64,000 nt of DNA from the IMG/VR virus record IMGVR_UViG_3300020036_001753, positions 1 through 64,000 of that record. One strand, 5' to 3'. Below the pieces are notes generated by a model, which saw only the letters and a list, made by a program, of their open reading frames with translations, did not search any database and was not told the DNA's origin. This document shows, piece by piece, positions 4,738-36,419 of the stretch; the stretch's first letter is position 1, and the number at the start of each line of letters is the position of its first letter. A program made the position numbers and the translations under genes. The stretch comes from a virus. Lineage: Duplodnaviria > Caudoviricetes.

Positions 4738-4767
4738 ATTATATCATAAAATCAAACAAAGTTTATT

Positions 4768-13130: not shown

Positions 13131-13153
13131 CTATTCCTATTGGTTTTAATCAT

Positions 13154-13196
13154 ATCTTGTCTAATCAGGTACATCCTGATTCAGACAAGATTTTTT
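13154..13196 (+). terminator. intrinsic terminator-like hairpin
   Basis: atcttgtct-aatcagg / cctgatt-c-agacaagat: 16-bp stem with one bulge and a 5-nt loop, followed by a T run. Confidence 0.7.
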
Positions 13197-13225
13197 GTTA
13201 ATGTTCCTATTCTAAAATAGAAATT

Positions 13226-15748
13226 ATGGCAGTTTTATCACTCGGTCAGGGCAGTATTTTTAAGCCTTTGAACTATGCAGCACCGGCAGCAACTTACGTT
13301 GGTGCGCCCATTGAAGCAGTAGATGCTTTAGGAGAAGGTCTTGAGAAGAAGTATTACTCTAATTTAGCAAATGTAGAAAAGCTTAAAGCTACTATAGATC
13401 AATTTGTAGTTAGAGACGTTAATAATCCTATCGTCGATCAAGCTAAAGAAGGCTTAAATAAAGTCTTTAATAAATACGCAGAGACAGGAGATTACGAAAA
13501 TGCTACCAAAGATCTTATCACATATGCTAACGAATTATCTAATAATAAGCTTTTAACCGGAGCTTTAAGAGACAAAGCGCAATATGATGCTTGGAGAAAA
13601 GAGCTTGATGATCAGCTCAGCAAAACTGAAATATCAAAGGATACATATGATTACTATGTTACTAATGGCTTACAATCCAATAATAAAATGTTGGAGTATG
13701 ATAAGCCTACGGGATTATATGGTAATATGTTTAACTATGGAAAACCAGGAAAAGATCAAGCTAAAGATATACAACAACAAGTTGTAGAACTTGGTAAATC
13801 TTTTAAGGCTTCTACAGTTGATATGCCTTATACTATAAAAGATCCTAAAACTGGTAAGACAAGACAACTTGCTTATTTAGATTCTCGTAGTGGTGCACCT
13901 CCAGGTTACATTGATATTGCTACACAAGAGTTTATTTCTGAAGCAGAAGTAACGTCAGCTTTAACTTCGATGGTTGAAAATAATCCTATGTATAAATCAT
14001 ACATAGAAGATATGGCGAAAGTTAACTCATGGAAGCAACTGCAAGCACAAGGAAAACAAGAACCGGATTTAGCTTCGCTTTACTCTCCAGATAATCCTCA
14101 TTCTTTGTTTAAGAAACCTGAATGGGAAGCTTTCATGAAAGGACTTGAAGAATCTGGCAAAGATCCTGTTGCAGTTCTTAATGATCCTTTGATGATTAAA
14201 GCTCTTCACATTCTTGGTAATAAGAATAAAATTATTAGCGGATTCACTGAACCTGTAGCTAGTGCAGTTTCTTATGAGAAGATTAATCATGAGTATAAAG
14301 AAGATATACCATTTAGGTCTGCTTTAGAATTAAGAAATAATCTTGCTGCAATAGAGGCTAAAAAACGTGCTGATATTGAAGTTGAGAAGTTTAAAGCAGA
14401 TTATAACAAACCCGCAGACTTCTTAATCAGTAATCCAGGATTGGCTGTACAACCTAATTCTAATTATTCGATTGAAGATGTTAAAACTAATGTAAGTAAG
14501 CAGAAAACGCAATTAGCCCAAATGAAGGAAAGTCTTGCTGATGCTACTAGTCCTGAAAGTAAAGCTAAATTAGGTGAAGAAATTCGTTCATTGGAAGGAA
14601 GAATCGCTGCACAAGAAAGAGGTATTCAAGCTACGATTAATGTAGAATTAAATTCTCCTGAGAATGAAGCTTTATTGAAAGAAGCTTATGATCAATTTAG
14701 AAGAAAGAAAGCTATTTATTGGGATAGAAACAATGGAGATATTAATCAAATTAATTCTTTTAATGATTTTAAAGCTGCACTTCAAAGTAAAACTTTTAAG
14801 AATAATCCTTCAGAAGCTATTTCAAGTAATTATGCTATATCGTTTCAAGGTAATCGAAGTACTGTTCAAACTTATGAAAGTTTGCCTATGGAAAAGAAAA
14901 CTGCTTACCTTGAAAACTTTATGTACGAAACGCAAGCTAAGATCATTAAGAGCGCAAATAAAGCACAAAGATCTGCACCGACAGCTTTGTCAGGAGAGAC
15001 ATTGATGACGCCAAATAGAGGTGAAGCTAAATCAGGTATTTTAGTACAAGCAGGAGACGCAATGACAAGAGACCTTACAGCTAATCCTACTAGCTATTAT
15101 GTTAATTATGGAGGTATGTCAGTTCCTATTGAAAAATGGAAAGAATCTTTCAAAGGAATAGATAGAGCTAAAATAGAATTTGTAGTAACTCCAGCTTTAG
15201 CAGATCATTCAATCAATGGAGTAAACTTGCAAGCTAATAAAGTAACAGCTATTGATGCAGTTACTAAGAAACCGTTAGGAGAAACTTGGCTATATTCTAA
15301 CGATGGAGGTGGAGATGAAGCTTGGAGATTAGGTGTACAAATGATGCGAGAATTTGCTCCTGGAACTGTTGAACATAACAAAGCTGTAATGCTTGCCGCT
15401 AATGGTAAATATGGCAATGTTGTTGCTAGTGATCTATACAGGCAATCTAGTTACGTTACTGCTAAAAGTAAAGAGCCTTTTGTTTCAGATAGATTTAAGA
15501 TTGAAGGTAGAGATATCGAATTTGTTAAACTTCCCGTGTATGTAAGAGATGCGAATGGTCAAGAAATTCGAGATACTCGTTATCAAGCTAGAGCAGTTAA
15601 TCCTGATGGTAGTATTGCGTATATCGCAAATATGACTAAAATGGCGCAAGGTTTTCAAGCTGCCAATCCTGCCGAACAGACTTACTTCGAGTCTATTGAA
15701 GATATGAAAGCTGAACTTTTCAAACAACTTGGACAATATTACTTATGA
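13226..15748 (+). CDS. virion cargo/ejection protein
   Basis: 840 aa, helical, Cys-free. First gene of the giant-protein cluster. Confidence 0.6.
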   Translation: MAVLSLGQGSIFKPLNYAAPAATYVGAPIEAVDALGEGLEKKYYSNLANVEKLKATIDQFVVRDVNNPIVDQAKEGLNKVFNKYAETGDYENATKDLITYANELSNNKLLTGALRDKAQYDAWRKELDDQLSKTEISKDTYDYYVTNGLQSNNKMLEYDKPTGLYGNMFNYGKPGKDQAKDIQQQVVELGKSFKASTVDMPYTIKDPKTGKTRQLAYLDSRSGAPPGYIDIATQEFISEAEVTSALTSMVENNPMYKSYIEDMAKVNSWKQLQAQGKQEPDLASLYSPDNPHSLFKKPEWEAFMKGLEESGKDPVAVLNDPLMIKALHILGNKNKIISGFTEPVASAVSYEKINHEYKEDIPFRSALELRNNLAAIEAKKRADIEVEKFKADYNKPADFLISNPGLAVQPNSNYSIEDVKTNVSKQKTQLAQMKESLADATSPESKAKLGEEIRSLEGRIAAQERGIQATINVELNSPENEALLKEAYDQFRRKKAIYWDRNNGDINQINSFNDFKAALQSKTFKNNPSEAISSNYAISFQGNRSTVQTYESLPMEKKTAYLENFMYETQAKIIKSANKAQRSAPTALSGETLMTPNRGEAKSGILVQAGDAMTRDLTANPTSYYVNYGGMSVPIEKWKESFKGIDRAKIEFVVTPALADHSINGVNLQANKVTAIDAVTKKPLGETWLYSNDGGGDEAWRLGVQMMREFAPGTVEHNKAVMLAANGKYGNVVASDLYRQSSYVTAKSKEPFVSDRFKIEGRDIEFVKLPVYVRDANGQEIRDTRYQARAVNPDGSIAYIANMTKMAQGFQAANPAEQTYFESIEDMKAELFKQLGQYYL

Positions 15749-18700
15749 CTACTACTGATCCAAATGCTATTAATATACTTAGTCCAAAGGACAAGTCGTT
15801 TATAATACCTACTACGGAAGGAGATTATTATTCAGTCTATGGGGAGCAGCCTGCGGTTGTTCCTATGGATGTAAGTAGATATGAAAAGTTCTTTCCTAAT
15901 AAAAATGTGCAATTGCTTCCTGATATGGATAGATATCGGGCTAGTCAACAAAGTACTTGGGCGCAAGCTGGAGGATTTCTAATGCAATCTTTAATAGGCG
16001 AAGTTGTAGGAGGAACTATTAGTGGATTTGGTAATCTTTATGAAGGTGTTAAAGATTTAATTAATGTTGCTGATCCTAATTATGATTCTGACTTCAATAA
16101 TATTGTTGTAGAAATTGGACAATCTATTAAGGATTTTGGTAAGGATAAGTTTCCAATTTATAGAGAAAATCCTGGTAAAGCTTGGGATGTAGGAGATCCT
16201 GCATGGTGGGCTGAAAATGCTGTATCTATTGCTTCTACACTATCGTTACTCATTCCTGCTACAGGAACAGTTAAAGGTCTTGGTGCAATTGGTAAAGCTT
16301 TGGGCATTGCAGATAAAGCAAGCGAAGTTGCTCAATATTGGGGCAAAGTTGGTACTACTGCTGGACTTATGCGCCACATGGAAAACTACCAAGAGGCTTT
16401 AGAAGTAGTTAATACTACAAAACAAGAAGTTGGAGCTACTACAAATCAGATGTCTGATGAAGAATTTTTAGAATTTGCAAGTAATACTGAAGCAGGAAAA
16501 GAAATGATTGCTGATGGTAGAGATATTACTAGAGAAAACTATGCAAATTATGTAGGCTCTAAATCAGGATGGCATAGCTATAAAGTTAATGCTTCCAATA
16601 TTGTATTTGATCTTATTCAAACTGCTGGTATTTTTAAAGCTTTAAAAGGAAGAACAAGAACTGGTAATGCTGGTTTAAGTTCTGTTGCTATGGCAGAAGC
16701 TTCAGCTGTTGGCAAACCTTTAACAGGTTTAGCTAAGTATAGTACTAATTATAAGGGCGGTTTAATGATGCTTGGAGAAGCTGCTACAGAAGGTTTAGAA
16801 GAAGTTGTTAACTTTATTGGAGGAGAAGAAGGTAAAGTAGAAGGAAAACGTTTGATTGGTCAAGACCCTTTAGAAGATACTGAAGGAAGAATTGGAGCTT
16901 ATCTTAAGGAAGGTCATTTATGGGAACAATTCTTTTGGGGTGCAATAGGTGGTGGAGTTTTTGCAGGTATAGGTAGAGCAGCACAAAGCCGTACTACTAA
17001 AGAACTTGAAGGACAAAAACTTGCTGAAATTGAAAATCGTAAATCTCTTATCGAAGAACTTAACACTAAGTATAAAAGTGTAGAAGATCAATTAAAAGCA
17101 GGTACTATTACTAAAGCTAATGCAGATATGCAAATGTCTCAATTAGCAAGAACTATGGGGCATAGAATGGGCATATCTGCTGCAACAGCAGGTAACGTTG
17201 ATAGCCTGCTTAACATGATTAATAATCCTGATTACTTAGAACAATTTAAAGTAGATGCTAAAACTCCTGAACAAGCTGCAATAGCTAAAGCAGAAGTACT
17301 AGCTGAACTTACTGATAATATTTTAACTGCTGAAAAGATATACAAAGGTTATTATAATAAAGTTTGGGCAGAGCCTGTAAGCGAAAGAACTAAAGGACAG
17401 CTTGTTGCTATTCAAACTGATATTGCTCTAGACTTAGTAAGTAAGGAAAAAGAATTAACTAAGCTAAAAACTGATAATAGTACTAGACTTAATGAACACA
17501 AGTCTCTTACTCAATCTACAACTCCAACTGATACTTTTATTAGAGATGCTAAAGTAATTGCTTTGGCTAATATTGACGCTGCTGTAAAAGCTGGAGAAAT
17601 TCCTGAATCTCAAGTAGCTAGACTTTCTGAAGAATCTAAAAGACTTCAAGAAGAAATTGCAGAACTTGATGGTCGTATTGGCAATTCTAATAGAAAGTCT
17701 AGTTCATTGAATGAATTGGATAAAGCTTTAGCCGAAGATTTAATTTTAGAACAAATTACTTCTTCATTAGTTAATACTCAAAAAGATCAACTTCGTCAAG
17801 TTACTAAACCTGATGCAGCTAAAAAATTAGATAATAAAAACAAAGAAGAAGCCTTAGCCGTAGCCAAAGCTAAAGAACAATTGTACAAGGAAAGCATTAC
17901 AGCTGCTGTAGATGAAAGTGCGATAGATGAAGCATTTTTAACTACAGCTATTAAAACTCCAGGAACTAGTAAGGAGATGCAAGCTTTCTTGAAAGGAGAG
18001 TTAACTAGACTGCAAGAAATCAATAAGAATAAAGCAGCTGCTACTCCTAGTACACCAGCTCCTGCAACTGCAGCTAGTAGTGTTAATTTAAATAATATTC
18101 CTGATCCAGTAGAAGCTACTACAAAGCCTGAAGCAACTAAACCTAGTACAACTAAGCCGACAGAAGCTACTGCATTAGCAGTAATTGATCCTGCTAAAAG
18201 AGCTAGCTTTACTAAAAGAGTAGCAACTATTGTAAAAGATACTACTACTGGAAGAAACGCAGCAATAGATTCTTTTATAAAAGGATTATTAGATATGGCT
18301 CCTACGGAAGCTGCTGAACAAGCTTTACAGCCTGCTATTGATTATCTTAATTCTTTAAAGATAGTTAAAGAGACAGTTCCTGAAGTTGTTCCTGAGACTG
18401 TAGCAACTGCTCCTAAAGAAGATAAATCTATGCCTAAACCTGCATCCGAATTGACAGACGCAGAGTTAGCTGGTATAGTTGAAGCTCCTGCAATAACAAA
18501 TACAGAAAAAGAATTTATAGAAGCTGCTGATAAAATCCTTCCTAAAAATATGATAAATGCTAGAAACAATGGATGGAATCCTGTTACTGGTAAAAAAGAA
18601 GGCACTCAATATGAATTGACAAGATTGTATTTAGCTCAACTAGCTTCTGATAAATTTAATTCAATGTTAGAAGAACTAGATGCTTCTTTTAAAGAAAAAC

Positions 18701-21651
18701 AATTAAAAGCTAATGAAGCAATATCAGATCAAAAAATTCTTCAAGAAAATGAAGTTCTACCAAAAGCTACTGAAAATACTGAAGTGGAAAAAACAGCGAA
18801 ACAAAAGAACGCTAGTCCACAAAGTGCAAAAAAGGATGGAAATAAAGATGAACTGGCTGGGGTTCCGGAAAAGACAGTAAAGCCTAAGGCTCCTAGTAAA
18901 GCTAAAACAAAGAAAGTATCAGAAGAATTAGGAGGACTGCTTAATGAACTTAGAGATGAAATCAAGAAGCCTGATTTAGGTATTGCAGATAATAATAGGT
19001 TAACTGATTTAGTAGCAAGAATTATAGCTAAGTTAATAGAACTTGGTTATGTTGCTATTGAAGATATGTTAACTTATATTTATCGTAATATTCCTGATGT
19101 ATTCGACGCCGTGTTCCCTGTAGTTAAGACTGAGTATGTGAAAGCTGTTAATGCAGGTAATATTAATAGAATTATAACTGACGAGCAAATAGAAGCAATT
19201 ACCAAAGAATCTATAATTAACGATACTGTCGAGATTATAGATGCTAATGCTAATGCTTTCTTGTTAGACGCAATGATTATTTCTGATATGCCTGATGGTG
19301 GTATTGTGCCAATAGATACTAATAAAGGTATTTATCAAATTAAAGATAAGGCTACTGAAGAAAGAATTAATGCTATGCGTGATTTGAAAGTTGGAGATAT
19401 AGTTGAATTGTCTATTGATAGAAATTCTACTTTTCATCAAGAAAATTTGAATAATGCTGCAATAGTTATTACTATTAATGGAGTACGACTCGGCTACCTT
19501 AATACTATAGGGAGCATTGAAAAAGCTTTAGTTAAGTTCGGTGCAAATACCAAATTTGGTACTACTTTAAGAGCTAATTTAATTGCTACTAAGAAACTGC
19601 GTAACCTTGTTTATAATAGTAACAAACCTATAAATGTTAAGGTAGCTAGAAAAACTAGCGGTACTAAAATACAAGGAACTTTAAAAAATATAAAAGACGT
19701 TTTGCTAGATGGGTTTGAAATATACTTTGGTAATGATAGAGAAAACTCTGGTAAAAACACTGTTCCTGATCTTGAGCATGTAATTACCGGTAAAGTTTTT
19801 ACTAGAAATGCTGACGGATTATCTTATTACAATCATGATGCTGAATATGATACTGGAGCATTTTATGCATTAGTTGCTGGATGGAATAGTGATGGTACGA
19901 TAGCTACTCAAATTCCTTTAAGATTACGTATGAGTAACTTATCTAAAGAGGATGCTAAGAATACTTATAGCATTATTAGAGAAATACTTATGCTTGTTTA
20001 TAAAACTCCTAATATTGAATTAAATAATCAGGAGCTTTTAGACTTAAAAGATAAGCTATCTAATTATATATTGGTCAATAAAAATAATGTCAATACTGAT
20101 GGTAGTGTTCCTGTTCCTGGATTCAAAGTTCATAAAGATCGTATTGAGTTTCTAGCAATGGATAATAATGCTGATGGTAGACCTACATACGCTTTAGCTA
20201 CTATCTACTTTAATTATGATACAGGTATTCCAATGCTTACTCTTAATAAATGGCATGGAGGTACTAAGCGTTATGAGAATCAAGAAGCATTTAATAAAGC
20301 TTATGATCAAAAGCCTTATTTAACTACAACTATTGGCGGTACTGTTGGTAGAGATAGAATAGTTTCTTTATTGGAAACTAAGCTGTATAACGGATCAATA
20401 GCTAAACTAAGGTCAGGAGAACAATCTTTACAGGATTGGATTGATGCTGGAAGATTTCAAACAGATACTGGAGTTCTTTTGGATACTGAAGGTAATCCTG
20501 TTAGTAACTTCATGGCACAAAATCCTAAGAATACTAAGACTCAGGAAGGTAATTTAGTTATATCGTTGGAAACAACTCCAACAACTGTTTCTAAAAGAAA
20601 ATCTAAAGCTAAACCTAAAGCTAAAAAAGAAACAGTAGTTGAAGAGGAGGTTGCACAACCTGCGGTATTAGAGTCTGTTGCTACTAATATTACAGTCGAG
20701 CAAAGTGCATTGAAGGATAGAATCGAAGCTATTCAACCTTTAATTTCTCAAGATAAAACAAATTACTATATTGAAGGAGATGCTTATGAAAGAGTTTCTA
20801 ATGTAATTAAAGACTATTACGATCAACCTGGAAGTAGTTCTACTGATAACACTAGTGCAGGAACTAGAATAGATGAAGTAATTAGAGAGTTCTTTATTAG
20901 TGGTAAAAAAGAAACAAGCGTTCCAGGAATATCTGATAAAGTTTTAACGTATCTTTATAACGAATTAGAAGAAATTAATAATAGGATTGTTGCTGCTGGT
21001 AAAATAGTATTAGCTAGTAATGTTAAAGTGTTTCATAGAGATGGGTTAATTGCAGGAGAAATAGATTTACTTATCCTAAATCCTGATGGTACTGTAGAAA
21101 TTTATGATATTAAAACAAGTACTCGTAGTACAGTTTCTCCTGGTTATAAAAAATCTTCTGGTGCTTATATAAGCTACGCTAAGCATCATGCTATTCAGCA
21201 ATCTTTATATAAAGTTATATTTGAAAATCAGTACGGTACAGAAGTAAAAAGAATAGCAATATTACCTTTCCAAATTGAACTTGACCAAGCTGGTAATGTT
21301 ATTGATATAGTTAGAGAAGCTGGAATACCTTTAGTTTTTGATGAAGATGCTAACACTATTATTCAAAATAAGATAGCTAAACGAAACGGTACGGAAGTAA
21401 TAGAAGAAGATGGCTTCGATTTAAGTGAAGAAGAATTAGAGTTAGGGGAAGTTGAAGATAATACTCCTACTATAGCTGATTATGAAAGTAGTTTACAAAC
21501 TCTCGTTAATGGAGCTATAGAACAGATTAATAACGGAGAATATGATATAGTCATAAAATCTAGAGGGCTTAGTAAAGAAGCTATCTTAGATGAACTTAAT
21601 AATGTTGCTACTACAAAAGATTTTGCTCAAATATTAAAAAAACTTTGTTGA
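15745..21651 (+). CDS. giant ejected virion protein: N-terminal membrane helices, HIRAN-like module, C-terminal PD-(D/E)XK nuclease
   Basis: Hydrophobic Gly-rich helices at the N-terminus. LKVGDIVEL...NAAIVITINGVRLGYL is HIRAN-like. AGEIDLL...IYDIKT...HAIQQSLY is a RecB/Cas4-type nuclease signature. Confidence 0.7.
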   Translation: MTTTDPNAINILSPKDKSFIIPTTEGDYYSVYGEQPAVVPMDVSRYEKFFPNKNVQLLPDMDRYRASQQSTWAQAGGFLMQSLIGEVVGGTISGFGNLYEGVKDLINVADPNYDSDFNNIVVEIGQSIKDFGKDKFPIYRENPGKAWDVGDPAWWAENAVSIASTLSLLIPATGTVKGLGAIGKALGIADKASEVAQYWGKVGTTAGLMRHMENYQEALEVVNTTKQEVGATTNQMSDEEFLEFASNTEAGKEMIADGRDITRENYANYVGSKSGWHSYKVNASNIVFDLIQTAGIFKALKGRTRTGNAGLSSVAMAEASAVGKPLTGLAKYSTNYKGGLMMLGEAATEGLEEVVNFIGGEEGKVEGKRLIGQDPLEDTEGRIGAYLKEGHLWEQFFWGAIGGGVFAGIGRAAQSRTTKELEGQKLAEIENRKSLIEELNTKYKSVEDQLKAGTITKANADMQMSQLARTMGHRMGISAATAGNVDSLLNMINNPDYLEQFKVDAKTPEQAAIAKAEVLAELTDNILTAEKIYKGYYNKVWAEPVSERTKGQLVAIQTDIALDLVSKEKELTKLKTDNSTRLNEHKSLTQSTTPTDTFIRDAKVIALANIDAAVKAGEIPESQVARLSEESKRLQEEIAELDGRIGNSNRKSSSLNELDKALAEDLILEQITSSLVNTQKDQLRQVTKPDAAKKLDNKNKEEALAVAKAKEQLYKESITAAVDESAIDEAFLTTAIKTPGTSKEMQAFLKGELTRLQEINKNKAAATPSTPAPATAASSVNLNNIPDPVEATTKPEATKPSTTKPTEATALAVIDPAKRASFTKRVATIVKDTTTGRNAAIDSFIKGLLDMAPTEAAEQALQPAIDYLNSLKIVKETVPEVVPETVATAPKEDKSMPKPASELTDAELAGIVEAPAITNTEKEFIEAADKILPKNMINARNNGWNPVTGKKEGTQYELTRLYLAQLASDKFNSMLEELDASFKEKQLKANEAISDQKILQENEVLPKATENTEVEKTAKQKNASPQSAKKDGNKDELAGVPEKTVKPKAPSKAKTKKVSEELGGLLNELRDEIKKPDLGIADNNRLTDLVARIIAKLIELGYVAIEDMLTYIYRNIPDVFDAVFPVVKTEYVKAVNAGNINRIITDEQIEAITKESIINDTVEIIDANANAFLLDAMIISDMPDGGIVPIDTNKGIYQIKDKATEERINAMRDLKVGDIVELSIDRNSTFHQENLNNAAIVITINGVRLGYLNTIGSIEKALVKFGANTKFGTTLRANLIATKKLRNLVYNSNKPINVKVARKTSGTKIQGTLKNIKDVLLDGFEIYFGNDRENSGKNTVPDLEHVITGKVFTRNADGLSYYNHDAEYDTGAFYALVAGWNSDGTIATQIPLRLRMSNLSKEDAKNTYSIIREILMLVYKTPNIELNNQELLDLKDKLSNYILVNKNNVNTDGSVPVPGFKVHKDRIEFLAMDNNADGRPTYALATIYFNYDTGIPMLTLNKWHGGTKRYENQEAFNKAYDQKPYLTTTIGGTVGRDRIVSLLETKLYNGSIAKLRSGEQSLQDWIDAGRFQTDTGVLLDTEGNPVSNFMAQNPKNTKTQEGNLVISLETTPTTVSKRKSKAKPKAKKETVVEEEVAQPAVLESVATNITVEQSALKDRIEAIQPLISQDKTNYYIEGDAYERVSNVIKDYYDQPGSSSTDNTSAGTRIDEVIREFFISGKKETSVPGISDKVLTYLYNELEEINNRIVAAGKIVLASNVKVFHRDGLIAGEIDLLILNPDGTVEIYDIKTSTRSTVSPGYKKSSGAYISYAKHHAIQQSLYKVIFENQYGTEVKRIAILPFQIELDQAGNVIDIVREAGIPLVFDEDANTIIQNKIAKRNGTEVIEEDGFDLSEEELELGEVEDNTPTIADYESSLQTLVNGAIEQINNGEYDIVIKSRGLSKEAILDELNNVATTKDFAQILKKLC

Positions 21652-21652
21652 T

Positions 21653-24600
21653 ATGATAGCTTGTCCAAATAAGAACTTTAGAACTAATCCCGATCAGAAG
21701 TTATCTGATTGGGATTCCTTAGTTAATAATATAGGTGAAATACCTGCTTTAACTGCCTTTATAGAAAACAACTACAATATACCTGCTATGGGTACTCCAG
21801 TAGCTGTTGCTGATAATACTTTAGTAAACTTACAAAAAGCTGATGAAGATTATTCTTCTACAACAGCAGAAGAATTAAAAGCAACTATTAAAGAAGTAGC
21901 TATTCGTGCTGCTAATAGAATTGGTGGTACAGTCGATTTTTATTTTGATAAATACGAACCGATTAGAGGAAAGAATGCAGGTATGAAATCTTCTATCAAT
22001 CTGGCTAAAGCTAGATTAGATACTCCTATTCATGAAATTTTAGGACACCCTATTATCAAAGTTCTTAAACTTCTAAGTAAAGAACAAAGAACTAAATTTG
22101 TTTGGGATGAACATTATGCTGTTGTAATTACTCCTACAGAAGATAACTTATATTGGAGTTATACTGAAATAGGATTAACTAACAAAACGCAAGTAGAACC
22201 TGCAAATATACAGATTTTCGATTCTAAAGAAGAAGCAGAAACATATCATGATATTAGAAAGCGTAATTTTGAAAAAGAAATTATAACCCCAGCTAGAAAT
22301 AATCTTTATAATAATCTTCTTAAGGAACTTGAAACTGGAAGAGGTAAGGAAGTATTAGATAGAGTACAAAAAGATTATAATGATAAAGAAGATTATGTAG
22401 TAAATAAAGCTAATCTATTAAAACAACTTCAACATTATAGTGATAATATAATAGATATAAATAATATTGTCATTAATCGTGTTTTTAATAATGAAACTAA
22501 CACGTTTACTATAAAGTCAATATCATATAATGCTGTTTATGATATTGGTATGGGTAAAACAAGAGAAAGTGAGCATAGTTATAATATAACAAAAGATTCT
22601 TTTTCCGATAAACTTCTTGAGAAGGCTAAATACACTTTAGAAGAACAACAAGAAGAAGCTATTGTAGAACTTCTTGGTATGCTAACAGCTGAAAAGTTAG
22701 ATAAAATTAAAGATAGTAGCTTAATAGCTTTACTTAAAGAGTTATTAAAGACTATATCTGATTTTGTTAAAACTTTGATTACTGCTAAAGAAATAGTAGT
22801 AGAAGATTTACCGGAAGAACTTACTTTAGAAGATTTGGCTAATATCTTTGCATATTCAGAAAGTAAGATTATTTTACCTGGATATAAAGCAGAATACAAA
22901 ACTCCTGATGGTCAGGTATTTTCTACTAATGCAGAAGCACAAAGACATTTAACTAAGTTATTATATCAAGAGCCGCAGCTGATAGAAGAGGAAGAGGATC
23001 AAGATTATGTTTCTTCTATTACCTATTTTCATAAGAACAAGATTTATAGATTTAAAATTAATCCTTCTATAGGAACTGATCAACCCTTTAATGTTATATA
23101 TGGGCTTGATATTCGCACTAATGATAATGCTTGGTTTTTAGTAAGCGAAGATAACACGTTTTCTAGAAAATTAACAGAGGAAGAAGTAATTAACTATTAT
23201 AATAATGAACTTTATTCATCTAATAAAGACTTTAAACAAGGCCGATTTCTTAGTATTAACAAAGAACTAGAAGAAGGCTTAGCAATTATTGAAGCTTATA
23301 AAAAAGAAAATAATATTAAGTATAATCCTCAAGAAGCTTATAATAGAGATCAAGAGTTTATATCTGTTATGGGGGCTTATGGCGGAGTTGATATTGATAT
23401 ATTTATTGCAAATTTACAACAACATGTAATAGATCATGCTAAAGCTGGATCAAGATTCGATTTAAGTGTAACTACTGCAAAAAAGAATAGTAGCTATCGT
23501 AATATAAAAGGGCATTTTAAAGGAAATAGAATTATCATTAAATTCTATCCACAACCTGAAGATATTAATTGGGTATCAAATACTGATAATTATTCAGGTA
23601 GTGTAAGAAGAGAAGATATTCATGCAGCTGATGTCGTATCTACAAAACCTGGAGAAGTTGTTGGAGTTAGTTTTACTAAAAGTCCAAGTAAACAGAATCT
23701 TTATTCAATAAAACCTAGTATAGCTGAAGCTATTGATAATGTAGCAGGCTATACAGAATTAGCTGTACAAATTACTGAAAATAATCATAGAATAATTTAT
23801 GAATCTGATGTACCGTATGCTACTAAAAGGTTAATAGATAAATATAATCAATGGTTAGATACCAAGTATGGTAAGGTAAAAGAACTGCCAAAAAGTGATA
23901 TGACTACTTTAAAATATGAAGTATGGATTGATCCTCTTCAAGAATACATAGATAGTGGTTGGGATATTGAATTTATAAAACGTTTTGATACTCCAGAAGA
24001 AGCACAAGAATTTATATTAGAAGCTCAAGAAAGATATTCTGCAGGAGCTCTTTATATGAAAGAAGTTGCTAAACCTGCGGAAACAGCACAAAAAGAAGTA
24101 GTGTCTATTAAAGAAGTTACTGATAAGATGTTTCCTAATATTGTTAAACCTGATATTAGTCAATTATATGTTGAAGAAACTATGCTTGGTAATAATGCGA
24201 TTGATGAAAGTGGAAACTATATACAAGAATATGCTGTAATTACTAATGGTGGGCTAGAAACAGGATTTGTTTTTGCTACTATTGAAGCTGCACAAGCTCA
24301 AGTTGATGAGTTAAATAAAGGAGTAGAAAGTTCTAAATTTTATGAAGTTGAACAAAGAAATAGATTAGATATTAAATATGTATTTTTATCAGATAACAAA
24401 TTTATTAAAGAAGCAATAAACAAATTAGATTTGATAGATGGTTTTAAAACAGAACGAGAATTATTAAATAAAAGATTATTAGTAATAAATACAGCAATAG
24501 AATTTTATAATGATGAATTAAAAAATTCAAATAAGTATAATATTAATACTAATCGTCAGCTAGAAATTAACAAAAAGATAGCTGATTTAAAAGAAGCTGA

Positions 24601-30600: not shown

Positions 30601-32431
30601 TGTTTCTACTGTTATCAATGATAAAACTCTGTTTGGTTCAAATAAATCTAATGCGTATTCTAAAGTAAAAAGAGAATATCAAACTAAGCTGTATCATTTA
30701 ATGGTATCGGAAGGACTTATTGATACTAAAGATGCTGTTAAGAGAAAACAACTAGTGCTAAACAAAGAAAAGAATAAATGGGAATGGTCTGCTAAACCTA
30801 TTTATTTACGTGAAGATGAATCTGCTATCTTAGAAGTTCCTGGTACAACTGCTTGGAGTGTAGAAGAACTAAATGATATGTTAGCAGTAGAGAATCCTTA
30901 TACAGTTTCTAAGCTATCTAATGCAGATAAAATTAAGTTTCTTAGAGAACAATTAGCTTTATTGGAAAGATACAGAGTTTATGAAAATACTGGACAAGCG
31001 TTACAATCTAATGTTAATCTTCTTGTTACAGATAAGATGGGAATCGGACCTAATATTAACGTTACTAGAGAATGGTCAGAACGTGTATCTGAAGAGATTA
31101 ATAATAGTTTAGATAATGATAGTGGAATTTTCACTAAAGATGGAGAAGCTTTGCTTAGTGCTATTTATAGTAATGAAGAATCTGCTTACGCTCCTTTAGC
31201 TAATTATGTAACTTATGGTAATGCTCCTGGTTATAATATACTTAGCAAGCTTTTCTTTACTACTAGTAATAACTTTAATAACTTTAAAGATATTCTTAAT
31301 ATAAAGAATGGAGATGCTCTAGTAGATAATTACTTATTGCAAGCGTTAGTAAGTATGATGCCTTATGCACAAGCTCTTAATACTCCGGAAATACTAGGTA
31401 TAAATAAAGAGTTTACGCCTGTATTTGATTTTACTTCGCAATCTATTGAAGAGTTTGATGCATTAAGTACTGCTAACAAATTGTTCTTAATTAAGAATAA
31501 CTTAACTACAGTGTTAGCTAAAGAAAGAGCGCATTTTCTTAACTTCTTAGAGCCAAACATCGACGCTAACGTTATTAAACGTAGAGGATTTCACTTTATC
31601 AATTTTAATAAGCCCAAGTCTACTGATAACATTGATGATACTATCATAATATCTTTTGAAAAGCTTATTAACTCTGATAATAAGTTCTTAGCTAATTTAG
31701 GTAAGAGTTTGGTTGACTATAACGTAGCTTTGTATGGATTGAATTTTGCTTCTAATTCTTGGAGTAATTATATACCTGCTACTTATTTGGTTAATACTAT
31801 GCAAGTTGATAAAGCTTTTAAGAATTACGAATTTAGATTGAATTCAGGAGAGACTTTAGTTTCTTATGATACTGATACTTTCTATAGAAATAATTGGGAT
31901 AATACTAATATTGTTCCTCAAGTTTATTCTAATTATGCTAAAGATGCAAGTGGAAGATACCTTATGGAAGAGGATGAATATGGGCAACCATTAGGTTATG
32001 AAGTTATTGATAATAAACCTGATTGGTCGGCAGCTAGTAATAGTAGTATATTACCTATTAGCAAGAAGAGATTAGCTAAAGAAGATAGCAAGATTAAAAG
32101 AGCAAAGTTCTTGTTAATATCTAAACTAGTTAAAGGTGAAAAAGTTACTACACTATTCAAACGGTATTTTACTGGAATACGTGAAATAGATAATATATAC
32201 GATACTAAAATAAGTAATGCTGTATATTATTATCCTATCGGAAAGCTTGGAGGTAAGTTAAAAAATACCGAATTTACAGCCAATTCAATGTACGCTGAAA
32301 ATAACGTTGCTTATCCAGCAGAAGTTTTTGAAAAGATGTTAGAACATAAATATTTAGGAAATACATTAACTCCTTCGGAAGCTAAAGCTATAATAGAAGC
32401 TGAACGTAACGAAGATAAATCTTGTAAATAG
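21653..32431 (+). CDS. virion RNA polymerase (crAss-like double-psi barrel) with accessory zincin, NADAR-like and P-loop kinase modules
   Basis: Catalytic DFDID at 29615-29629 in GWDFDIDTLY, preceded by GYRIPT and LPGELVTKTG. HEILGH at 22031. Walker A GTSGSGKST at 25178. Confidence 0.9.
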   Translation: MIACPNKNFRTNPDQKLSDWDSLVNNIGEIPALTAFIENNYNIPAMGTPVAVADNTLVNLQKADEDYSSTTAEELKATIKEVAIRAANRIGGTVDFYFDKYEPIRGKNAGMKSSINLAKARLDTPIHEILGHPIIKVLKLLSKEQRTKFVWDEHYAVVITPTEDNLYWSYTEIGLTNKTQVEPANIQIFDSKEEAETYHDIRKRNFEKEIITPARNNLYNNLLKELETGRGKEVLDRVQKDYNDKEDYVVNKANLLKQLQHYSDNIIDINNIVINRVFNNETNTFTIKSISYNAVYDIGMGKTRESEHSYNITKDSFSDKLLEKAKYTLEEQQEEAIVELLGMLTAEKLDKIKDSSLIALLKELLKTISDFVKTLITAKEIVVEDLPEELTLEDLANIFAYSESKIILPGYKAEYKTPDGQVFSTNAEAQRHLTKLLYQEPQLIEEEEDQDYVSSITYFHKNKIYRFKINPSIGTDQPFNVIYGLDIRTNDNAWFLVSEDNTFSRKLTEEEVINYYNNELYSSNKDFKQGRFLSINKELEEGLAIIEAYKKENNIKYNPQEAYNRDQEFISVMGAYGGVDIDIFIANLQQHVIDHAKAGSRFDLSVTTAKKNSSYRNIKGHFKGNRIIIKFYPQPEDINWVSNTDNYSGSVRREDIHAADVVSTKPGEVVGVSFTKSPSKQNLYSIKPSIAEAIDNVAGYTELAVQITENNHRIIYESDVPYATKRLIDKYNQWLDTKYGKVKELPKSDMTTLKYEVWIDPLQEYIDSGWDIEFIKRFDTPEEAQEFILEAQERYSAGALYMKEVAKPAETAQKEVVSIKEVTDKMFPNIVKPDISQLYVEETMLGNNAIDESGNYIQEYAVITNGGLETGFVFATIEAAQAQVDELNKGVESSKFYEVEQRNRLDIKYVFLSDNKFIKEAINKLDLIDGFKTERELLNKRLLVINTAIEFYNDELKNSNKYNINTNRQLEINKKIADLKEAELRYPRGLVTSSVVPDGTSMVNDGTIAWQKVESTENPKKAKVEGINIFTKSTDKLGRQLTNPNWGAKEIMDIEAVYKANASRIKAPQLDAQAALVYDKNLMYSLQVQKFRNHPELIEEINKRGGLDFILASSHETGEKNSRWTGTGMESNFIQVLAKSYETVAKELNKFIDKSAEQQITKPSNSTKPDVILPIGTSGSGKSTWISSINKDNKFVVISPDEMRVEFTGDMNDKSKDKEIYEEAAKRTIQAIKDGKQVIFDTTNLTKDKRRPFINAIKAALPNANIQYKLMPLNPELAKQRIKADIAAGKNRANVPDATIDRHAISYAEMLEDIKSEDISNYDDVVTTTNNTPIVDSLSEDKKARKSSRYKGMESLQRQFTLTDIEIYVNHISLRAMQFINKFADVTNADKIANPGKYDIKANILVALKKHTNSLLLQGDKEGATETKRIVNNFDDFWNLAVEEVDRKLNYDISDEQMPAKYDGNTKLTKTWDDAAAFSISSKESFDKEIKRIIMTTPKVANTDFAYRGGEFVYTNDDERFSRDNKARLITGLDFNTLYPFILSQMSGLSTDQEMMDRLYYLKDTEPSMLLLWDKISKDPLLRNKWFANFNKAYYPAKYYRISDTAGKLIIRRDTANKQFVLADTWSNRLKVLITYSNNNPEKTVFSKALLSEITALINSKGSLEDRIKNVALAYQKIGIDLKSDVLSKIVNNPLFWAEAETAEEFFDKEIVLNFKKIGNTLFNQKEIKFNAQGYINKVAEYAQVYYYNVIESSYYTGGGESVYSYNKPNFLTRFFNKFTRLNKVDSLDATKDKQDILDFIKEYMQDTGMIFSNWVYENGSNNTFLKVRQGEKTLEELTIDDLNIEAIKNFEFNLLDTVKQENSNVVVDYSSMSGEDWKMFTLLEYLNGAKGFANIPILIQSDSSNIYTLQLPKISIYEAGSVFTDKGIKRSSKLFKAVENTVIQEIARMQVAKNLLFDEIKNDAGVVIGLSPKQFDNAMLASLEQGYHYDTLGKDGQPILLDSAGFPTGRVFKFQNTNYSSATGEIISLNNSPELFSFGIFRRDMVRNLIINDHIESFINDLVKSHLKIYKSFEGNITIAEKGKKTKLLSSYSNYADFIAEFAINTYLSNVEQSNWMSGLLGQYKSWVESNKRAKQLTSPAQTAGTAYRGVTYKAAVVEDANLASSYLQGIKASLISSLKNKYPGLVYREKTKAKRNALEIEVDKILKAYSRTTVSDGQSYMTLDRLEKVLKDFGRWNKKYEMLFAKIKAGATLTENDISLLLVPMKPYYYYKNVNGNTSSVRSTQVKTAIIPLIPQLIKGTGLERVLANMEKNSVDEIYFKSAVKVGGTYTNKILDNKGNVLKNFDLIAADYYNEGWGLQLDLPQHLKDQQNKLGIQIAKLIFSNLPATTQFAVGSTTYTGEQLFKLFTDLQEANLKQDLNTLLEELGVFRFEELYDALDSLNTGRVSDPSFGFTDYNKVAEILKDEIIKRNLPLHYLNFIELDPLDNTFKIPLSLGFLGNKFQQILTALFTNRITDQKFPGGHVALISDIMFTHIENPTDLGIEFISTGEKGKEVQERLKSGNFRLQPPIIVNETTLKVEAIMPAWSKKFFKNGNRVSINEIPEELRTMVGYRIPTEEKYSMVVLEVIGFAPEGLDTFAILPGELVTKTGWDFDIDTLYLMQKTFDVNLKEYKYTTDRDKLFRQFVINRTNVNIYKDFAEDKKAIIKDFAEFYGVPADNLGEVFDYLNQLIADEKERQSLLDWIDNSDITALRFDIEYVKAIGQEIAEAKARIATTEEMYRDEFNAYTTEELNSKAARNNRIFDIFKGILSSPDIYAQAMTPGAFSDMADLKTKVEKLIGDSGSRYNPHTRAGQDSFRDKNISGVILKGISASINGALPIFQQTESQFSDDLAFTIIENGETKIYKAIGKRDDGTVYGENGNLITNGTAQLLGNTVDIVKEGFPYNINVETVYIFSAMLITGISIDYAGTFIRQPIVNKYVSTVINDKTLFGSNKSNAYSKVKREYQTKLYHLMVSEGLIDTKDAVKRKQLVLNKEKNKWEWSAKPIYLREDESAILEVPGTTAWSVEELNDMLAVENPYTVSKLSNADKIKFLREQLALLERYRVYENTGQALQSNVNLLVTDKMGIGPNINVTREWSERVSEEINNSLDNDSGIFTKDGEALLSAIYSNEESAYAPLANYVTYGNAPGYNILSKLFFTTSNNFNNFKDILNIKNGDALVDNYLLQALVSMMPYAQALNTPEILGINKEFTPVFDFTSQSIEEFDALSTANKLFLIKNNLTTVLAKERAHFLNFLEPNIDANVIKRRGFHFINFNKPKSTDNIDDTIIISFEKLINSDNKFLANLGKSLVDYNVALYGLNFASNSWSNYIPATYLVNTMQVDKAFKNYEFRLNSGETLVSYDTDTFYRNNWDNTNIVPQVYSNYAKDASGRYLMEEDEYGQPLGYEVIDNKPDWSAASNSSILPISKKRLAKEDSKIKRAKFLLISKLVKGEKVTTLFKRYFTGIREIDNIYDTKISNAVYYYPIGKLGGKLKNTEFTANSMYAENNVAYPAEVFEKMLEHKYLGNTLTPSEAKAIIEAERNEDKSCK

Positions 32432-32432
32432 T

Positions 32433-35400
32433 ATGATTTGTACTTTTAATGCACCAAACGGAGAAGCTTCAAATTTATATTCAGAAGTTAAAGATGCTTA
32501 TGGTTCTTTAGCAGCAGAAGCTACGTATGCTTTTGTTAGAACTCCTGAATTTAAAGAACGATATCCAGAAGCTTTATTTTCTTATCAAGGTGAACCTGAA
32601 TTTGGTTGGCTACTAACTAATAATTTAATTAGAAATTTTGCTGATCCTACACCTTTGGAAAGTAAAGTTTATCAAGATTTTACTAGATTAGCTGATATAT
32701 TTGAGGAGTATGTACCTAACCTATATCTTAGAGAAGATACCGAATTGAATGCAAGTGCGGAAATAGGTTATGACGCAAATAATGTTCCTTACATAGCTTT
32801 CAATCCTAATAGAATTGCAGCTGATAGTATTTTTCATGAATTTGGACACCTTTACGTAGATTTATTAGGATATACTAATCCTTTAATTCAGGCAGGTATT
32901 GATCAATTGAGAGGTACTACTCTTTGGAATAATATTCAAAGACTGTATCCTGATTTGAATGACGAACAACTTGGAAAAGAAGTATTAACTACTGCAATAG
33001 GAAACCAAAGCTTACTTCTACAGGGAGATAATAAAATTGTATTTATAATTAATCAGATACTTAGAAAGATTGCTGAACTATTAGGATTAGAAATAGACAT
33101 AGCGAAGAAACTAGCTTCTGAATTAATTACTGGTAACGTTGAAAAGAAACTTAGAGGAAAACTCTCCCTGTATAGACAACAACGACGTTTTGAATTGGTT
33201 AATGATGCTTTTATAACTAAGAAAAGTTTTTTGATTAAAGCTAGAAATTCACTTATCAAAAAGATAAATGATTTCTATTCGCATTTATCGGCAGCTGAAA
33301 AAGCTAAAGATATTAGTTATACTAAACTATCTACATTCAAGCAAATGCTGGATAATGCTATTGAGTCTAACGAGGATATTGGTATCTTAAATTTCATTAA
33401 GAATACTTATGAACTAGCAACTAGTCTTAATGCAAGATTAGATCAAATAGTTGATGGAACTTGGAGAGATGCTCGAACTGGAAGAACTGAAGTTACAGCT
33501 GAAGATATTCTTAATATTCAAAATTACAATAGTCTTTTTGGTTTAGCTACCGAATTGATTGAACTTGTAGAAACTGATCCTAGTTTGAAACTGCGTATTA
33601 GTATGTTAAAACTAGATAACGCTTTACAGGATATAGCAGCTAAACATATTAAGATAGCAAATCTTAGTAAACAACTTGGTATCAAGATTGGAAGTAAGCT
33701 ACTAAGAAAAAGCGGTGCAGGAATTAATAAAGAAGAAGCCTTACAAAGACAGAAGCTGGAAAGAGAATACAATCAAACAAATAAGGAAGAACGTAATGCC
33801 GCTAATACTCCTGGAAAGAAACGCAGATTTGCAGAGAAACGGACTAAGTGGGTGAATGAGCAATTGCCTAAGTCTGAAGATACTAGTTATTATGATTATA
33901 TTTTACAACAATCTAATAGAGATATATCTTATTTAGACAGATTGTTTGTAGATGCGGATAAGCTTAATGATGAATTAATAAATACAGTTAGTGAAATTCT
34001 TGATAAAGTCGATTACGAAACCATGACTGCTGTAAATAAAGAATACGATGCTTTAAATGCAGTATTCCTAGATTACAGTAAAAAACATCCCCAGGGAGAT
34101 CAATTTGAAAAGTATAAAGATTTGCTTGAAGATGAAGTTATTTATAAAGATGGCAAAATTGTAAAGACTGGTAAAAAGAATACTAAATTAGCTAGTAAAT
34201 ATTATTCAATATTTATTGCTGAACATAATAAGGCTTGGGAAAAGTATCATGAATTAGGTAATACTTTAGGTTACAAAAGTAAAGAAGCTAAAGCGGAGTA
34301 TAAAAAAGTATTAGTTTGGCGTAACGCTAACATGGTTAATAAAGGTACTAAAGCTGACCCAGTTTGGATTGCTAATGACAAATGGCTTAATCCTGCATAT
34401 GATGCTATTAAAGACGATCCTATGTATAAGTATCTTACTAATTCTCTTATTGAAGCTGATTTAAATTTGCCTACGGCAGCTAAACTAGTTCGTAGTAGAT
34501 ATGGAGTTAACTCATTTGAATTACCTTCAATTAAGAGAAGAGGTCTAGAAAAGGTTTATCGCGATGGATTGTTTTCTACTATCAAAGAGAAGTGGGATGC
34601 TTTTTGGACTAAGTCTGCTGAAGATGATACTGCTTATGGAACTACAGTAGTTGTAGATACTTTGAATGACGCTTTGTTAGTAACAACTAATGAAGCTGGA
34701 GTTGAGCAAAACTCAATTCCGATTCACTTTAGGCATACTATTTCCAAAGAAGATCAATCCTACGATCTGCCTAGTATAATCTTATTGAATTATCATATGG
34801 CATTGAATTATAAAAACAAAACTAATGTTCGATTTGATATAGAATTAATCAGAACTTTGGCTGCCGAAAGAGATGTAGTTAAAACTGATGTAGGATTCTT
34901 GAGAGGTTTGAAATATAAGCTTGATAGAGTGTTATACAGAAAGACAGCAGATAAGGAATCTGATAAGCCTGGAGAACAAATTCCATTAACAGAAAAAGGA
35001 GAATTTAGTAATGCTTTTGCAGCATTAGATTCTATGATCGAACATAGATTATATGGAATTAGTACTTTATCTAGTGTTCAAGTTAATAAGATAGTTAATG
35101 CTATTGCTGGATATACGGGTCATACGTTGTTAATGCTTAATTATTTATCAGCCGGAGCTAACTTAGCTACCGGTATGATGTATAATATGTTTAGAGTTTC
35201 TCCTAGATTTTATACTAGAGATAACTTTGCAAAAGCTCATGCTAAATACGTAGCTAATATTCATACCATAGTTGGAGATATTGGAAAGCGAGTTCCTACT
35301 AGTAAAGTTAATTTGTTAATAAGAAAATTTAATGCTTTTGGAGATTGGGAAGCGGTAGCAAAACAATTTGTTAATGATACTAGACTTAAACAGATGGCAG

Positions 35401-36419
35401 ATTTAGGAACAATGCACTTTATGAATCATAGTGCAGAGCATATGATACAGTCTATCTTAATGCTTTCTGTCCTAGATAACATTAAAGTTAAGAATAAAGA
35501 TGGATTATATATTACTGCATCTGGCGAAACTACTGACGATATAAATAAAGCGATGTCTTTAGACGAAGCTTATGATGTTATTGATGGAGATTTAGTATTA
35601 AAACCTGGTGTAGATTCATCTTCTTTTCAAGATAGTATTAATGATTCTGAAAGCTTTTCTAAAGATACAGAATTTTTAGTTAGTCGAATGATTAGGGAAT
35701 TAAATTCTCAAATACAGGGGCAGTACAGTCCTCAAAAGAAAGCTGAAATTCAGAGACATTGGTATGGAGTTTTAGTTATGTTATTGAGAAAATGGATGCC
35801 TGCTGGATTAAAGTATAGATGGAGAGGTGTTGAAAGTATGTTTAAAGATAAGGATAATCTATTGGAAGATGAAATTTTCTATGACAAAGCTTTAAACGAA
35901 ATTCAGGAAGGATACTACGTTACTACTGGTAGAATATTAACTACTTTGATAAGACACGGAAAGCAGATTAAATGGGAAATAGTAAAGCAAGAATGGAGTG
36001 AACTAACTGATGAGGAAAAAGCTAATGTTATTAGAACTGTTAAAGAATTTGTTACAGTTGTAACACTTTTAGCTATCGGAAGTATGTTTAAAGAGATGGG
36101 CGACGATGACGAAGGAAATGTAGGTTACTATTTGATAGCTTTTTATGCGCTAAGATTGCAACGGGAAATGATGACGTTTGTTAATCCTGCAGAATTTAGT
36201 TCTACAATTAGGACTCCAACCGTAGCTATTGCAATGTTAGATAGAGGTATAGCTTTACTTTGGCAAATGCTTCATCCTTTTGAAAGATATGAAACTGGTG
36301 CTAGAGATGGAGAGCTAAAGATAATTAAGAAGCTACAAGACTTTGTGCCGATTGCTAAGCAGATTGATAGAGAATTAGTAGAAGCAGTTAATTGGATGTA
36401 TAGTAAGCGGATTAGATAG
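32433..36419 (+). CDS. giant ejected virion protein with N-terminal zincin-like metallopeptidase
   Basis: HEFGH at 32835 with a downstream KEV third-ligand candidate, and hydrophobic C-terminal helices. Third member of the crAss-like giant-gene triad. Confidence 0.7.
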   Translation: MICTFNAPNGEASNLYSEVKDAYGSLAAEATYAFVRTPEFKERYPEALFSYQGEPEFGWLLTNNLIRNFADPTPLESKVYQDFTRLADIFEEYVPNLYLREDTELNASAEIGYDANNVPYIAFNPNRIAADSIFHEFGHLYVDLLGYTNPLIQAGIDQLRGTTLWNNIQRLYPDLNDEQLGKEVLTTAIGNQSLLLQGDNKIVFIINQILRKIAELLGLEIDIAKKLASELITGNVEKKLRGKLSLYRQQRRFELVNDAFITKKSFLIKARNSLIKKINDFYSHLSAAEKAKDISYTKLSTFKQMLDNAIESNEDIGILNFIKNTYELATSLNARLDQIVDGTWRDARTGRTEVTAEDILNIQNYNSLFGLATELIELVETDPSLKLRISMLKLDNALQDIAAKHIKIANLSKQLGIKIGSKLLRKSGAGINKEEALQRQKLEREYNQTNKEERNAANTPGKKRRFAEKRTKWVNEQLPKSEDTSYYDYILQQSNRDISYLDRLFVDADKLNDELINTVSEILDKVDYETMTAVNKEYDALNAVFLDYSKKHPQGDQFEKYKDLLEDEVIYKDGKIVKTGKKNTKLASKYYSIFIAEHNKAWEKYHELGNTLGYKSKEAKAEYKKVLVWRNANMVNKGTKADPVWIANDKWLNPAYDAIKDDPMYKYLTNSLIEADLNLPTAAKLVRSRYGVNSFELPSIKRRGLEKVYRDGLFSTIKEKWDAFWTKSAEDDTAYGTTVVVDTLNDALLVTTNEAGVEQNSIPIHFRHTISKEDQSYDLPSIILLNYHMALNYKNKTNVRFDIELIRTLAAERDVVKTDVGFLRGLKYKLDRVLYRKTADKESDKPGEQIPLTEKGEFSNAFAALDSMIEHRLYGISTLSSVQVNKIVNAIAGYTGHTLLMLNYLSAGANLATGMMYNMFRVSPRFYTRDNFAKAHAKYVANIHTIVGDIGKRVPTSKVNLLIRKFNAFGDWEAVAKQFVNDTRLKQMADLGTMHFMNHSAEHMIQSILMLSVLDNIKVKNKDGLYITASGETTDDINKAMSLDEAYDVIDGDLVLKPGVDSSSFQDSINDSESFSKDTEFLVSRMIRELNSQIQGQYSPQKKAEIQRHWYGVLVMLLRKWMPAGLKYRWRGVESMFKDKDNLLEDEIFYDKALNEIQEGYYVTTGRILTTLIRHGKQIKWEIVKQEWSELTDEEKANVIRTVKEFVTVVTLLAIGSMFKEMGDDDEGNVGYYLIAFYALRLQREMMTFVNPAEFSSTIRTPTVAIAMLDRGIALLWQMLHPFERYETGARDGELKIIKKLQDFVPIAKQIDRELVEAVNWMYSKRIR

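Follow-up and report, generated by a model that had tools for sequence, protein, structure and literature searches.

The giant cargo genes and their cysteines

The stretch of DNA investigated here, called the window, comprises 64,000 nt (positions 1 to 64,000) of the IMG/VR record IMGVR_UViG_3300020036_001753 (Duplodnaviria; Caudoviricetes), and our subject is the distribution of cysteines in three giant cargo proteins that it encodes side by side. Five consecutive cargo open reading frames (ORFs) on the plus strand stand after the gene of a muzzle-like protein, and the last three of them encode a protein of 1968 aa (A), a virion RNA polymerase of 3592 aa (B) and a protein of 1328 aa (D) (Table 1). 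Translation of all five ORFs yields only four cysteines among 8322 residues, and these are located exclusively at the inner ends of the triad. The single cysteine of A is its last residue (1968; TGT at 21646-21648), B has exactly two, at residue 4 and at the penultimate residue 3591 (TGT at 21662-21664 and 32423-32425), and the sole cysteine of D is residue 3 (TGT at 32439-32441). Both outer ends, the N-terminus of A and the C-terminus of D, are free of cysteine. Stop and start codon are one base apart at both junctions, with a TGT flanking on each side. The original prediction for this stretch had named the same four cysteines in 8322 residues and the same cysteine-free outer ends, which is exact on translation, and its estimate of about 14 cysteines in the muzzle-like protein corresponds to 14 counted.

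Cysteine accounts for 0.05-0.08% of the residues of A, B and D and for 0% of the two small cargo proteins, compared with a background of about 1.1% and with about 1% in the remaining ORFs of the window; the muzzle-like protein provides an internal control for an ordinary cysteine content. Among the background ORFs from all loci (n=314), a cysteine is present within the first 10 residues in 7.6% and within the last 10 in 9.6%. The chance that four randomly placed cysteines all come to lie at most four residues from the four inner termini is about 3e-11.

Identity of the three proteins

Residues 2098-2982 of B match chain A of PDB 6VR4, which is gp66 of phage phi14:2 (E 3.4e-31, phmmer against PDB), indicating that B is a gp66-type two-barrel virion RNA polymerase. 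It additionally carries an AAA_33/Zeta-toxin kinase-like insert (residues 1161-1328, Pfam). D shares 28% identity with phi14:2 gp65 (E 3e-82), and A is related to crAss001 gp47 (E 4e-23) via a shared nuclease-like region, its residues 1707-1935 representing a PD-(D/E)XK nuclease-like domain (Pfam PF12705, E 5e-5). The gene order of the window, with the muzzle gene followed by two small cargo genes and the triad, is that of phi14:2 and crAss001. Because homology and gene order agree with both phages, we regard the window as part of a distant crAss-like phage and the triad as its polymerase-associated cargo. In the database searches, a megablast of the region against the phage collection gave no match, PHROGs provided none for D, the muzzle-like protein or the N-terminal 1000 residues of B, and relatives of D in IMG/VR were found by an alignment-based scan (7) and not by a search with its first 500 residues. 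Mass spectrometry of crAss001 virions detected gp47, gp50, gp49, gp45 and gp46, and these proteins are assumed to leave the particle in a partly unfolded state (PMC10172136).

Conservation of the terminal cysteines in Crassvirales

In addition to the window, we read 22 crAss-like genomes of several families in their context, namely, Steigviridae (L001, L002, L009, L014, L016), Suoliviridae (L010, L015), a p-crAssphage-like contig (L007), a Bajarodcaudo virus (L008) and thirteen metagenomic lineages (L003-L006, L013, L017-L024). Conservation of the terminal cysteines across such triads, which the original prediction had proposed as a check, was found at all junctions examined: cysteines stand on both sides in 32 of 32 junctions and one-sided junctions do not occur (0). 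Thirty of these junctions were tabulated and two more stem from L008. The cysteine is located at offsets of -1 to -9 in the C-terminal tails and at positions 3 to 7 in the N-terminal ones.

At about 28% identity, phi14:2 shows the same arrangement as the window, the sole cysteine of gp67 being its last residue, those of gp66 being residue 3 and the penultimate one, and that of gp65 being residue 3. In crAss001, gp47 has its sole cysteine three from the end and gp49 has only Cys5, while gp50 harbors Cys5, one internal cysteine and a cysteine nine from the end. Homologs of A carry the cysteine at the last or penultimate residue in 101 of 101 cases. Among those of D it is found at position 3-5 in 18 of 20, mostly as the sole cysteine of the protein, and C3 is invariant in 12 homologs with a mean column identity of 41%. 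Polymerase homologs initially gave a mixed picture that became consistent after mapping of their domain architecture (see below). The terminal cysteines are retained at 20-30% protein identity across Crassvirales, and the sequence comparison confirms the pattern as an order-wide rule. The chain proteins of L006 (2623-25051) are rich in cysteine (10, 26 and 8) and retain the terminal ones; the terminal rule is therefore separate from the general cysteine depletion. The host or environment of this lineage may be different.

Three candidate exceptions were rejected. P0013 is a frameshifted contig with a cysteine at the true N-terminus, the members of a clade with proteins of 4121-4362 aa have a gene-caller start that lies 26 codons too far upstream, and P0133 is the last protein in its chain, with an upstream partner that carries a cysteine at -8. 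In the p-crAssphage-like contig (L007:9813-10079), the called start of a B+D fusion is located 26 codons before the likely true start, which masks Cys3.

Cysteines follow the break of the polypeptide

Sorting the retrieved proteins by the type of their termini (n=168) showed that none of the 108 A-type N-termini has a cysteine in the first ten residues and none of the 53 D-type C-termini has one in the last ten. A cysteine does occur in the last ten residues of 111 of the remaining 115 C-termini; the four that lack one belong to truncated proteins or to proteins that close their chain. The composition of the triad differs between phages. The N1 module, which comprises approximately the first 830 residues of B in the window, is the N-terminus of D-like proteins in other phages, and architectures with A and B fused, with B and D fused and with all three fused (5673 aa) were found. 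An A+B fusion of 4599 aa has a sole cysteine, its last residue, and the next protein has its sole cysteine at residue 3. A B+D fusion possesses an N-terminal Cys5 and one internal cysteine and is devoid of the C-terminal one, and the complete fusion of 5673 aa lacks terminal cysteines altogether. N1+D fusions have no cysteine other than that at the new N-terminus, and L010, where the N-terminal motif of the D type has become internal, lacks the cysteine of this motif and has one at the new N-terminus. Cysteines are thus present at chain-facing ends and absent at fused junctions, and we therefore conclude that they track the polypeptide break and not the domain.

The polymerase gene of Bajarodcaudo virus 1 (L008:9764-17947) is interrupted by an endonuclease ORF of 243 aa precisely at its catalytic DFD motif. 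Aligned to an intact homolog, the two parts are contiguous (3-1517 and 1518-2431), and there is no cysteine at the break. This cysteine-less split was rejected as a protein break in favor of an endonuclease-bearing, intron-like insertion; it looks like one of the group I intron type.

A protein-level feature

The tight junctions of the window, with stop and start codons one base apart and a TGT on either side, could also be read in terms of DNA. The TGT codons would then be a nucleotide-level feature of coupled genes, such as a reinitiation signal or a promoter element, and have no role in the protein. The comparative sequences refute this explanation, to which we assign a negligible probability. 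Terminal cysteines are kept where the genes lie on opposite strands, e.g., crAss001 gp47 versus gp50-gp49, across an intervening gene in L004, over a spacer of about 190 nt with a strong hairpin between A and a B+D fusion (L007) and with about 750 nt between genes. The junction spacing ranges from a 1-nt overlap to these large gaps, both TGT and TGC occur as codons of the terminal cysteines, and the cysteines persist in L015 despite recoded stop codons. Selection on the terminal cysteines at the protein level is strongly supported. The original prediction had concluded from their retention that they are under selection, and their persistence at low identity, absence from the outer ends, loss in fusions and maintenance between non-adjacent genes all speak for it.

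Two of these loci deserve a separate remark. The gene between the two cysteine-tipped chain genes of L004 (4251-4748) encodes a ferritin/rubrerythrin-like protein of 165 aa. In L015 (cr4_1; 2786-21674), two chain genes contain 38 and 18 in-frame stops under table 11, which is consistent with late-gene stop-codon recoding.

A probable head-to-tail disulfide chain

The function of the terminal cysteines is probably to join A, B and D head to tail by interchain disulfides in the virion. The C-terminal cysteine of A would pair with Cys4 of B, and the penultimate cysteine of B with Cys3 of D, so that three gene products (6888 residues) would form one covalent thread, A-S-S-B-S-S-D, corresponding in function to the single fused polyprotein found in some relatives. 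Such bonds would fix the stoichiometry and order of the cargo for packing and tail passage, the near-terminal position of the cysteines would keep the joint thin enough for threading, and the reducing cytoplasm of the host would open it, thereby freeing the polymerase and its partners. The fixed order and stoichiometry and the release by cytoplasmic reduction are inferred.

Head-to-tail pairing is consistent with all comparative evidence, and the bond itself is suggested for crassviruses by the sequence pattern and by a precedent. In cyanopodophage A4 (A-4L), cryo-electron microscopy (cryo-EM) revealed that the C-terminal helix of gp27 inserts into gp26 and that both proteins are connected by a disulfide between Cys1715 and Cys5 (PMC12002296). 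The tails at the tabulated junctions are of complementary charge, which was counted for a pairing of C-tails with N-tails: the 12 residues preceding a break are acidic on balance (mean -1.2, p = 0.001) and the 12 following it basic (mean +0.9, p = 0.002), with p-values that are indicative only, the 30 junctions being related. According to the phi14:2 preprint, the termini of gp66 are the sole untraced parts of its crystal structure, which is in keeping with tails that are flexible and exposed. In an AlphaFold model of the first 330 residues of D (mean predicted local distance difference test, pLDDT, 67.6), residues 2-70 align with gp66 residues 2-95 of the 6VR4 structure (Z 6.1, rmsd 2.7, 67 residues, 21% identity). 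Together with a sequence motif after the cysteine that is common to several polymerases and N1 modules, this alignment makes a common small N-terminal cap headed by the cysteine likely. Finally, the cryo-EM study of crAss001 reports disulfides that link subunits, both in the portal-vertex protein and between the proteins of the tail hub and the ring (PMC10172136), and crassvirus particles from an anaerobic host therefore do contain such bonds.

Several points weigh against a disulfide chain. The bond has as yet been seen in no crassvirus, and the 2023 reconstruction of crAss001 gave the cargo no ordered density (PMC10172136). The precedent of A4 is an analogy, and the bond there holds together a folded pre-ejectosome, not a proven thread. 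Homology of A, B and D to A4 gp26, gp27 and gp28 was detected neither by BLASTP (none at E <= 0.01, best E 0.15) nor by hmmsearch or hhalign (probability 0.8%). Hosts such as Bacteroides are anaerobic and have a reducing cytoplasm, and the timing and route of oxidation pose a difficulty. The junctions are phylogenetically related, and their counts are accordingly not independent. Alternative pairings, such as A with D plus a cyclised B, or dimers of like with like, would be compatible with the sequences. Lastly, L013 (290-19104) is a single case without both cysteines, its adjacent giants of 1982 and 4264 aa having none at all. This lineage may have lost the tether on both sides; we give it little weight because the nuclease segment is all that its upstream protein has in common with A.

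Possible other roles of the thiols

The nucleotide-level explanation and three rivals that accept a role of the thiols together make up a minor, though appreciable, part of the probability. The foremost of them, itself unlikely, is that the terminal cysteines bond other partners, forming A-A or D-D dimers or a cyclised polymerase or anchoring the cargo to proteins of the portal or inner capsid. Each cargo protein is presumed to be packaged in several copies, structural proteins of crAss001 are joined by disulfides, and which thiol meets which is not readable from sequence alone. However, such partners leave unexplained why cysteines stand on both sides of every break and never at the outer ends, why both are lost on fusion and why C-tails and N-tails have opposite charges, and the one solved case, A4, is a C-terminal to N-terminal bond between consecutive proteins. 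Some other thiol chemistry at the ends, be it a processing signal, a thioester-type ligation or an acylation that anchors the ejected proteins in a membrane, appears very improbable. Ejected proteins of podophages do associate with membranes (PMC11445570), and the N-terminal cysteine sits in the cap that the D model has in common with 6VR4, but neither the restriction to inner ends nor the loss on fusion follows from such a chemistry, the variable offsets speak against a precise enzymatic site, and neither an intein nor a domain related to acyltransferases is found by Pfam in the three proteins. Protein trans-splicing by a split intein was rejected for the location of the cysteines 1-9 residues from the chain ends and the lack of a Hint/intein domain in A, B and D in Pfam.

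Metal binding by the thiols was examined along with the zincin motifs that the original prediction had placed in both downstream partners, B and D, 125-135 residues after the junction. As a motif, HExxH is genuine and conserved in D. Its H135 is nearly invariant, E136 and H139 are invariant, and in the model strands at 98-123 are followed by a helix (132-145) that carries the motif. The resemblance of D to zincin folds is modest: a zincin family was not matched in Pfam, the best Foldseek match of the model is MATCAP (E 7.6e-3; none at E <= 0.001), and the superposition on the catalytic domain of anthrax lethal factor, obtained with a model of pLDDT 67.6, reaches a Z of about 6 and an rmsd of 3.5-3.9 over 121-125 residues. 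The motif of B is not canonical. Its residues 127-132 read HExxxH, one residue more than HExxH, and may represent a zincin derivative with one inserted residue. Every N1 module that was examined retains them as HEIL[GA]H and polymerases without N1 lack them; in a profile comparison, the surrounding region weakly resembles the zincin region of D (hhalign probability 41%).

A slightly less probable rival than alternative partners is that the thiols bind metal, either through an ion shared by two tails or in a cysteine switch. In the latter, the N-terminal cysteine, or the C-terminal one of the partner, would cap the zinc of the zincin-like domain some 130 residues further on, and the domain would stay latent up to ejection. 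The conserved motifs at a similar distance from the cysteine in D and B favor it, as does the D model, whose residues 1-20 are moderately confident and may pack on the domain. Contrary to this expectation, Steigviridae and other polymerases have an N-terminal cysteine without HE..H within 600 residues, eight or more polymerases have it without any such motif, and the D protein of L006 has a degenerate motif and retains Cys5; the cysteine is therefore not tied to the zinc site. The terminal cysteines are not accompanied by conserved His, Asp or Glu, and the A4 bond is a plain disulfide. Latency by a cysteine switch of the matrix-metalloproteinase type was rejected, given terminal cysteines without a zinc site in the same protein. 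The release of the chain by a zincin, as suggested originally, is a weak proposition, because a disulfide opens by reduction and needs no protease, and because the HExxxH motif of B belongs to a mobile N-terminal module that many cysteine-bearing polymerases lack.

Further cargo and virion proteins

The features of the window and cysteine-bearing cargo proteins of other phages are compiled in Table 1. The 594-aa cargo protein has a weak PHROG match to 'internal virion protein'. Upstream of the muzzle gene, two ORFs on the plus strand, 184-2049 (621 aa) and 2680-4737 (685 aa), are cysteine-free as well and lack a match in PHROGs; they could encode additional proteins that are internal or ejected. 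In several Steigviridae, the cargo protein of the gp45 type contains exactly two cysteines 8-9 residues apart, and its 840-aa counterpart in the window contains none.

Table 1. Features of the window and cysteine-bearing ejection or cargo proteins of other phages
Feature	Location	Strand	Remark
Muzzle-like structural protein, 1397 aa, 14 Cys	7156-11349	+	Position as crAss001 gp44
Small cargo protein, 594 aa, Cys-free, outside the Cys-tipped set	11346-13130	+	Position as crAss001 gp46/gp45
Small cargo protein, 840 aa, Cys-free, outside the Cys-tipped set	13226-15748	+	Position as crAss001 gp46/gp45
A, first link of the proposed chain, 1968 aa	15745-21651	+	Homolog of crAss001 gp47
B, virion RNA polymerase, 3592 aa	21653-32431	+	Match to PDB 6VR4 (phi14:2 gp66)
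HExxxH motif, B residues 127-132, inside the N1 module	22031-22048	+	Kept in N1 modules of other phages
D, last link of the proposed chain, 1328 aa	32433-36419	+	Homolog of phi14:2 gp65
HExxH motif, D residues 135-139	32835-32849	+	Motif conserved
gp45-type Cys pairs	L002 gp45 390/398; L001 g069 369/378; L008:31879-34842 351/359; L016:30217-32547 329/337
CxxC-bearing ejection proteins	L025 gp28; L026:2310-5294; L027:2548-5589

Significance of the proposed tether

Crassvirales are the most abundant phages of the human gut, and the packing, order and delivery of their five cargo proteins, among them the polymerase with which infection starts, are a question of general interest. A recent study of N4 (2026) pointed out that the relation of the three crass polymerase-associated proteins to the string of N-terminal domain (NTD), core and C-terminal domain (CTD) in the N4 polymerase needs study (PMC13434306). 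A disulfide tether, if present, would explain how separate genes act as one string. Non-reduced virions of crAss001 should then yield a species of about 694 kDa, calculated from the masses of gp47, gp50 and gp49, and four single residues would become targets for investigating the order of ejection and the activation of the polymerase. The tether would also link crassviruses to A4, suggesting a principle that is wider than either group. We tentatively formulate this principle as a design rule of podophages, with the balance falling slightly against it: each break of a giant ejected polyprotein into genes would be re-closed post-translationally by a terminal Cys-Cys staple, and a thread of about 6900 residues that includes the polymerase would be injected as one string and then cut by the reducing cytoplasm. 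The release that allows the infection's first transcription would thereby be timed by a redox switch.

Literature searches on cysteine or disulfide in combination with crAss cargo retrieved no earlier description for Crassvirales. The suppression of cysteine in ejected proteins of Schitoviridae and one terminal disulfide in A4 were already known (PMC11445570; PMC12002296).

Comparison with known systems

The closest equivalent of the triad is the RNA polymerase cargo block of Crassvirales themselves, i.e., gp67-gp66-gp65 of phi14:2 and gp47-gp50-gp49 of crAss001, which is homologous, is found in the same place and has the same terminal-only cysteines. The polymerase of the window differs in size, with 3592 aa compared to 2180-2412 aa in phi14:2 and crAss001, and in having the extra N-terminal module and the kinase-like insert. 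The terminal cysteines are mentioned in neither the phi14:2 preprint nor the crAss001 atlas.

Schitoviridae resemble crassviruses in that a giant virion RNA polymerase and its companions are ejected via a short tail and in the strong suppression of cysteine. Their ejected proteins (N4 gp50, DEV gp71-gp73) are documented to be free of cysteine (PMC11445570), as the original prediction had stated for proteins of the N4 type. The N4 polymerase has been described as beads on a string consisting of NTD, core and CTD (PMC13434306). However, this string is a single polypeptide with zero cysteines, whereas crassviruses distribute theirs over two or three genes and place cysteines exactly at the breaks.

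With respect to the proposed mechanism, a parallel is found in di-chain bacterial toxins, whose two chains are held together by one disulfide during their unfolded passage through a membrane channel and come apart when the cytosol reduces it. They differ in being nicked from one precursor, with a bond that spans a loop, whereas the crassvirus proteins are separate gene products that would be joined end to end.

A further comparison is provided by A4. In the A-4L genome, gp27 (1717 residues) has Cys1715 and gp26 (1114 residues) has Cys5 as sole cysteine, and the pair is retained in Pf-WMP3, Pf-WMP4 and TR020. As a separate observation, the peptidase-bearing ejection proteins of these phages, A-4L gp28 and its equivalents in Pf-WMP3 and Pf-WMP4, have their sole two cysteines in a CxxC motif about 20 residues from the C-terminus, which is missing in TR020 (Table 1). 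Like A, B and D, gp27 and gp26 are consecutive giant ejection proteins with near-terminal cysteines in otherwise cysteine-poor chains. There is one junction in A4 and two in the window, the A4 chain does not include an RNA polymerase, and its bond staples a folded pentameric ring, from which the authors state no general rule (PMC12002296). A4 therefore represents the same design either independently or through very remote kinship, and it is the only example in which the bond has been seen.

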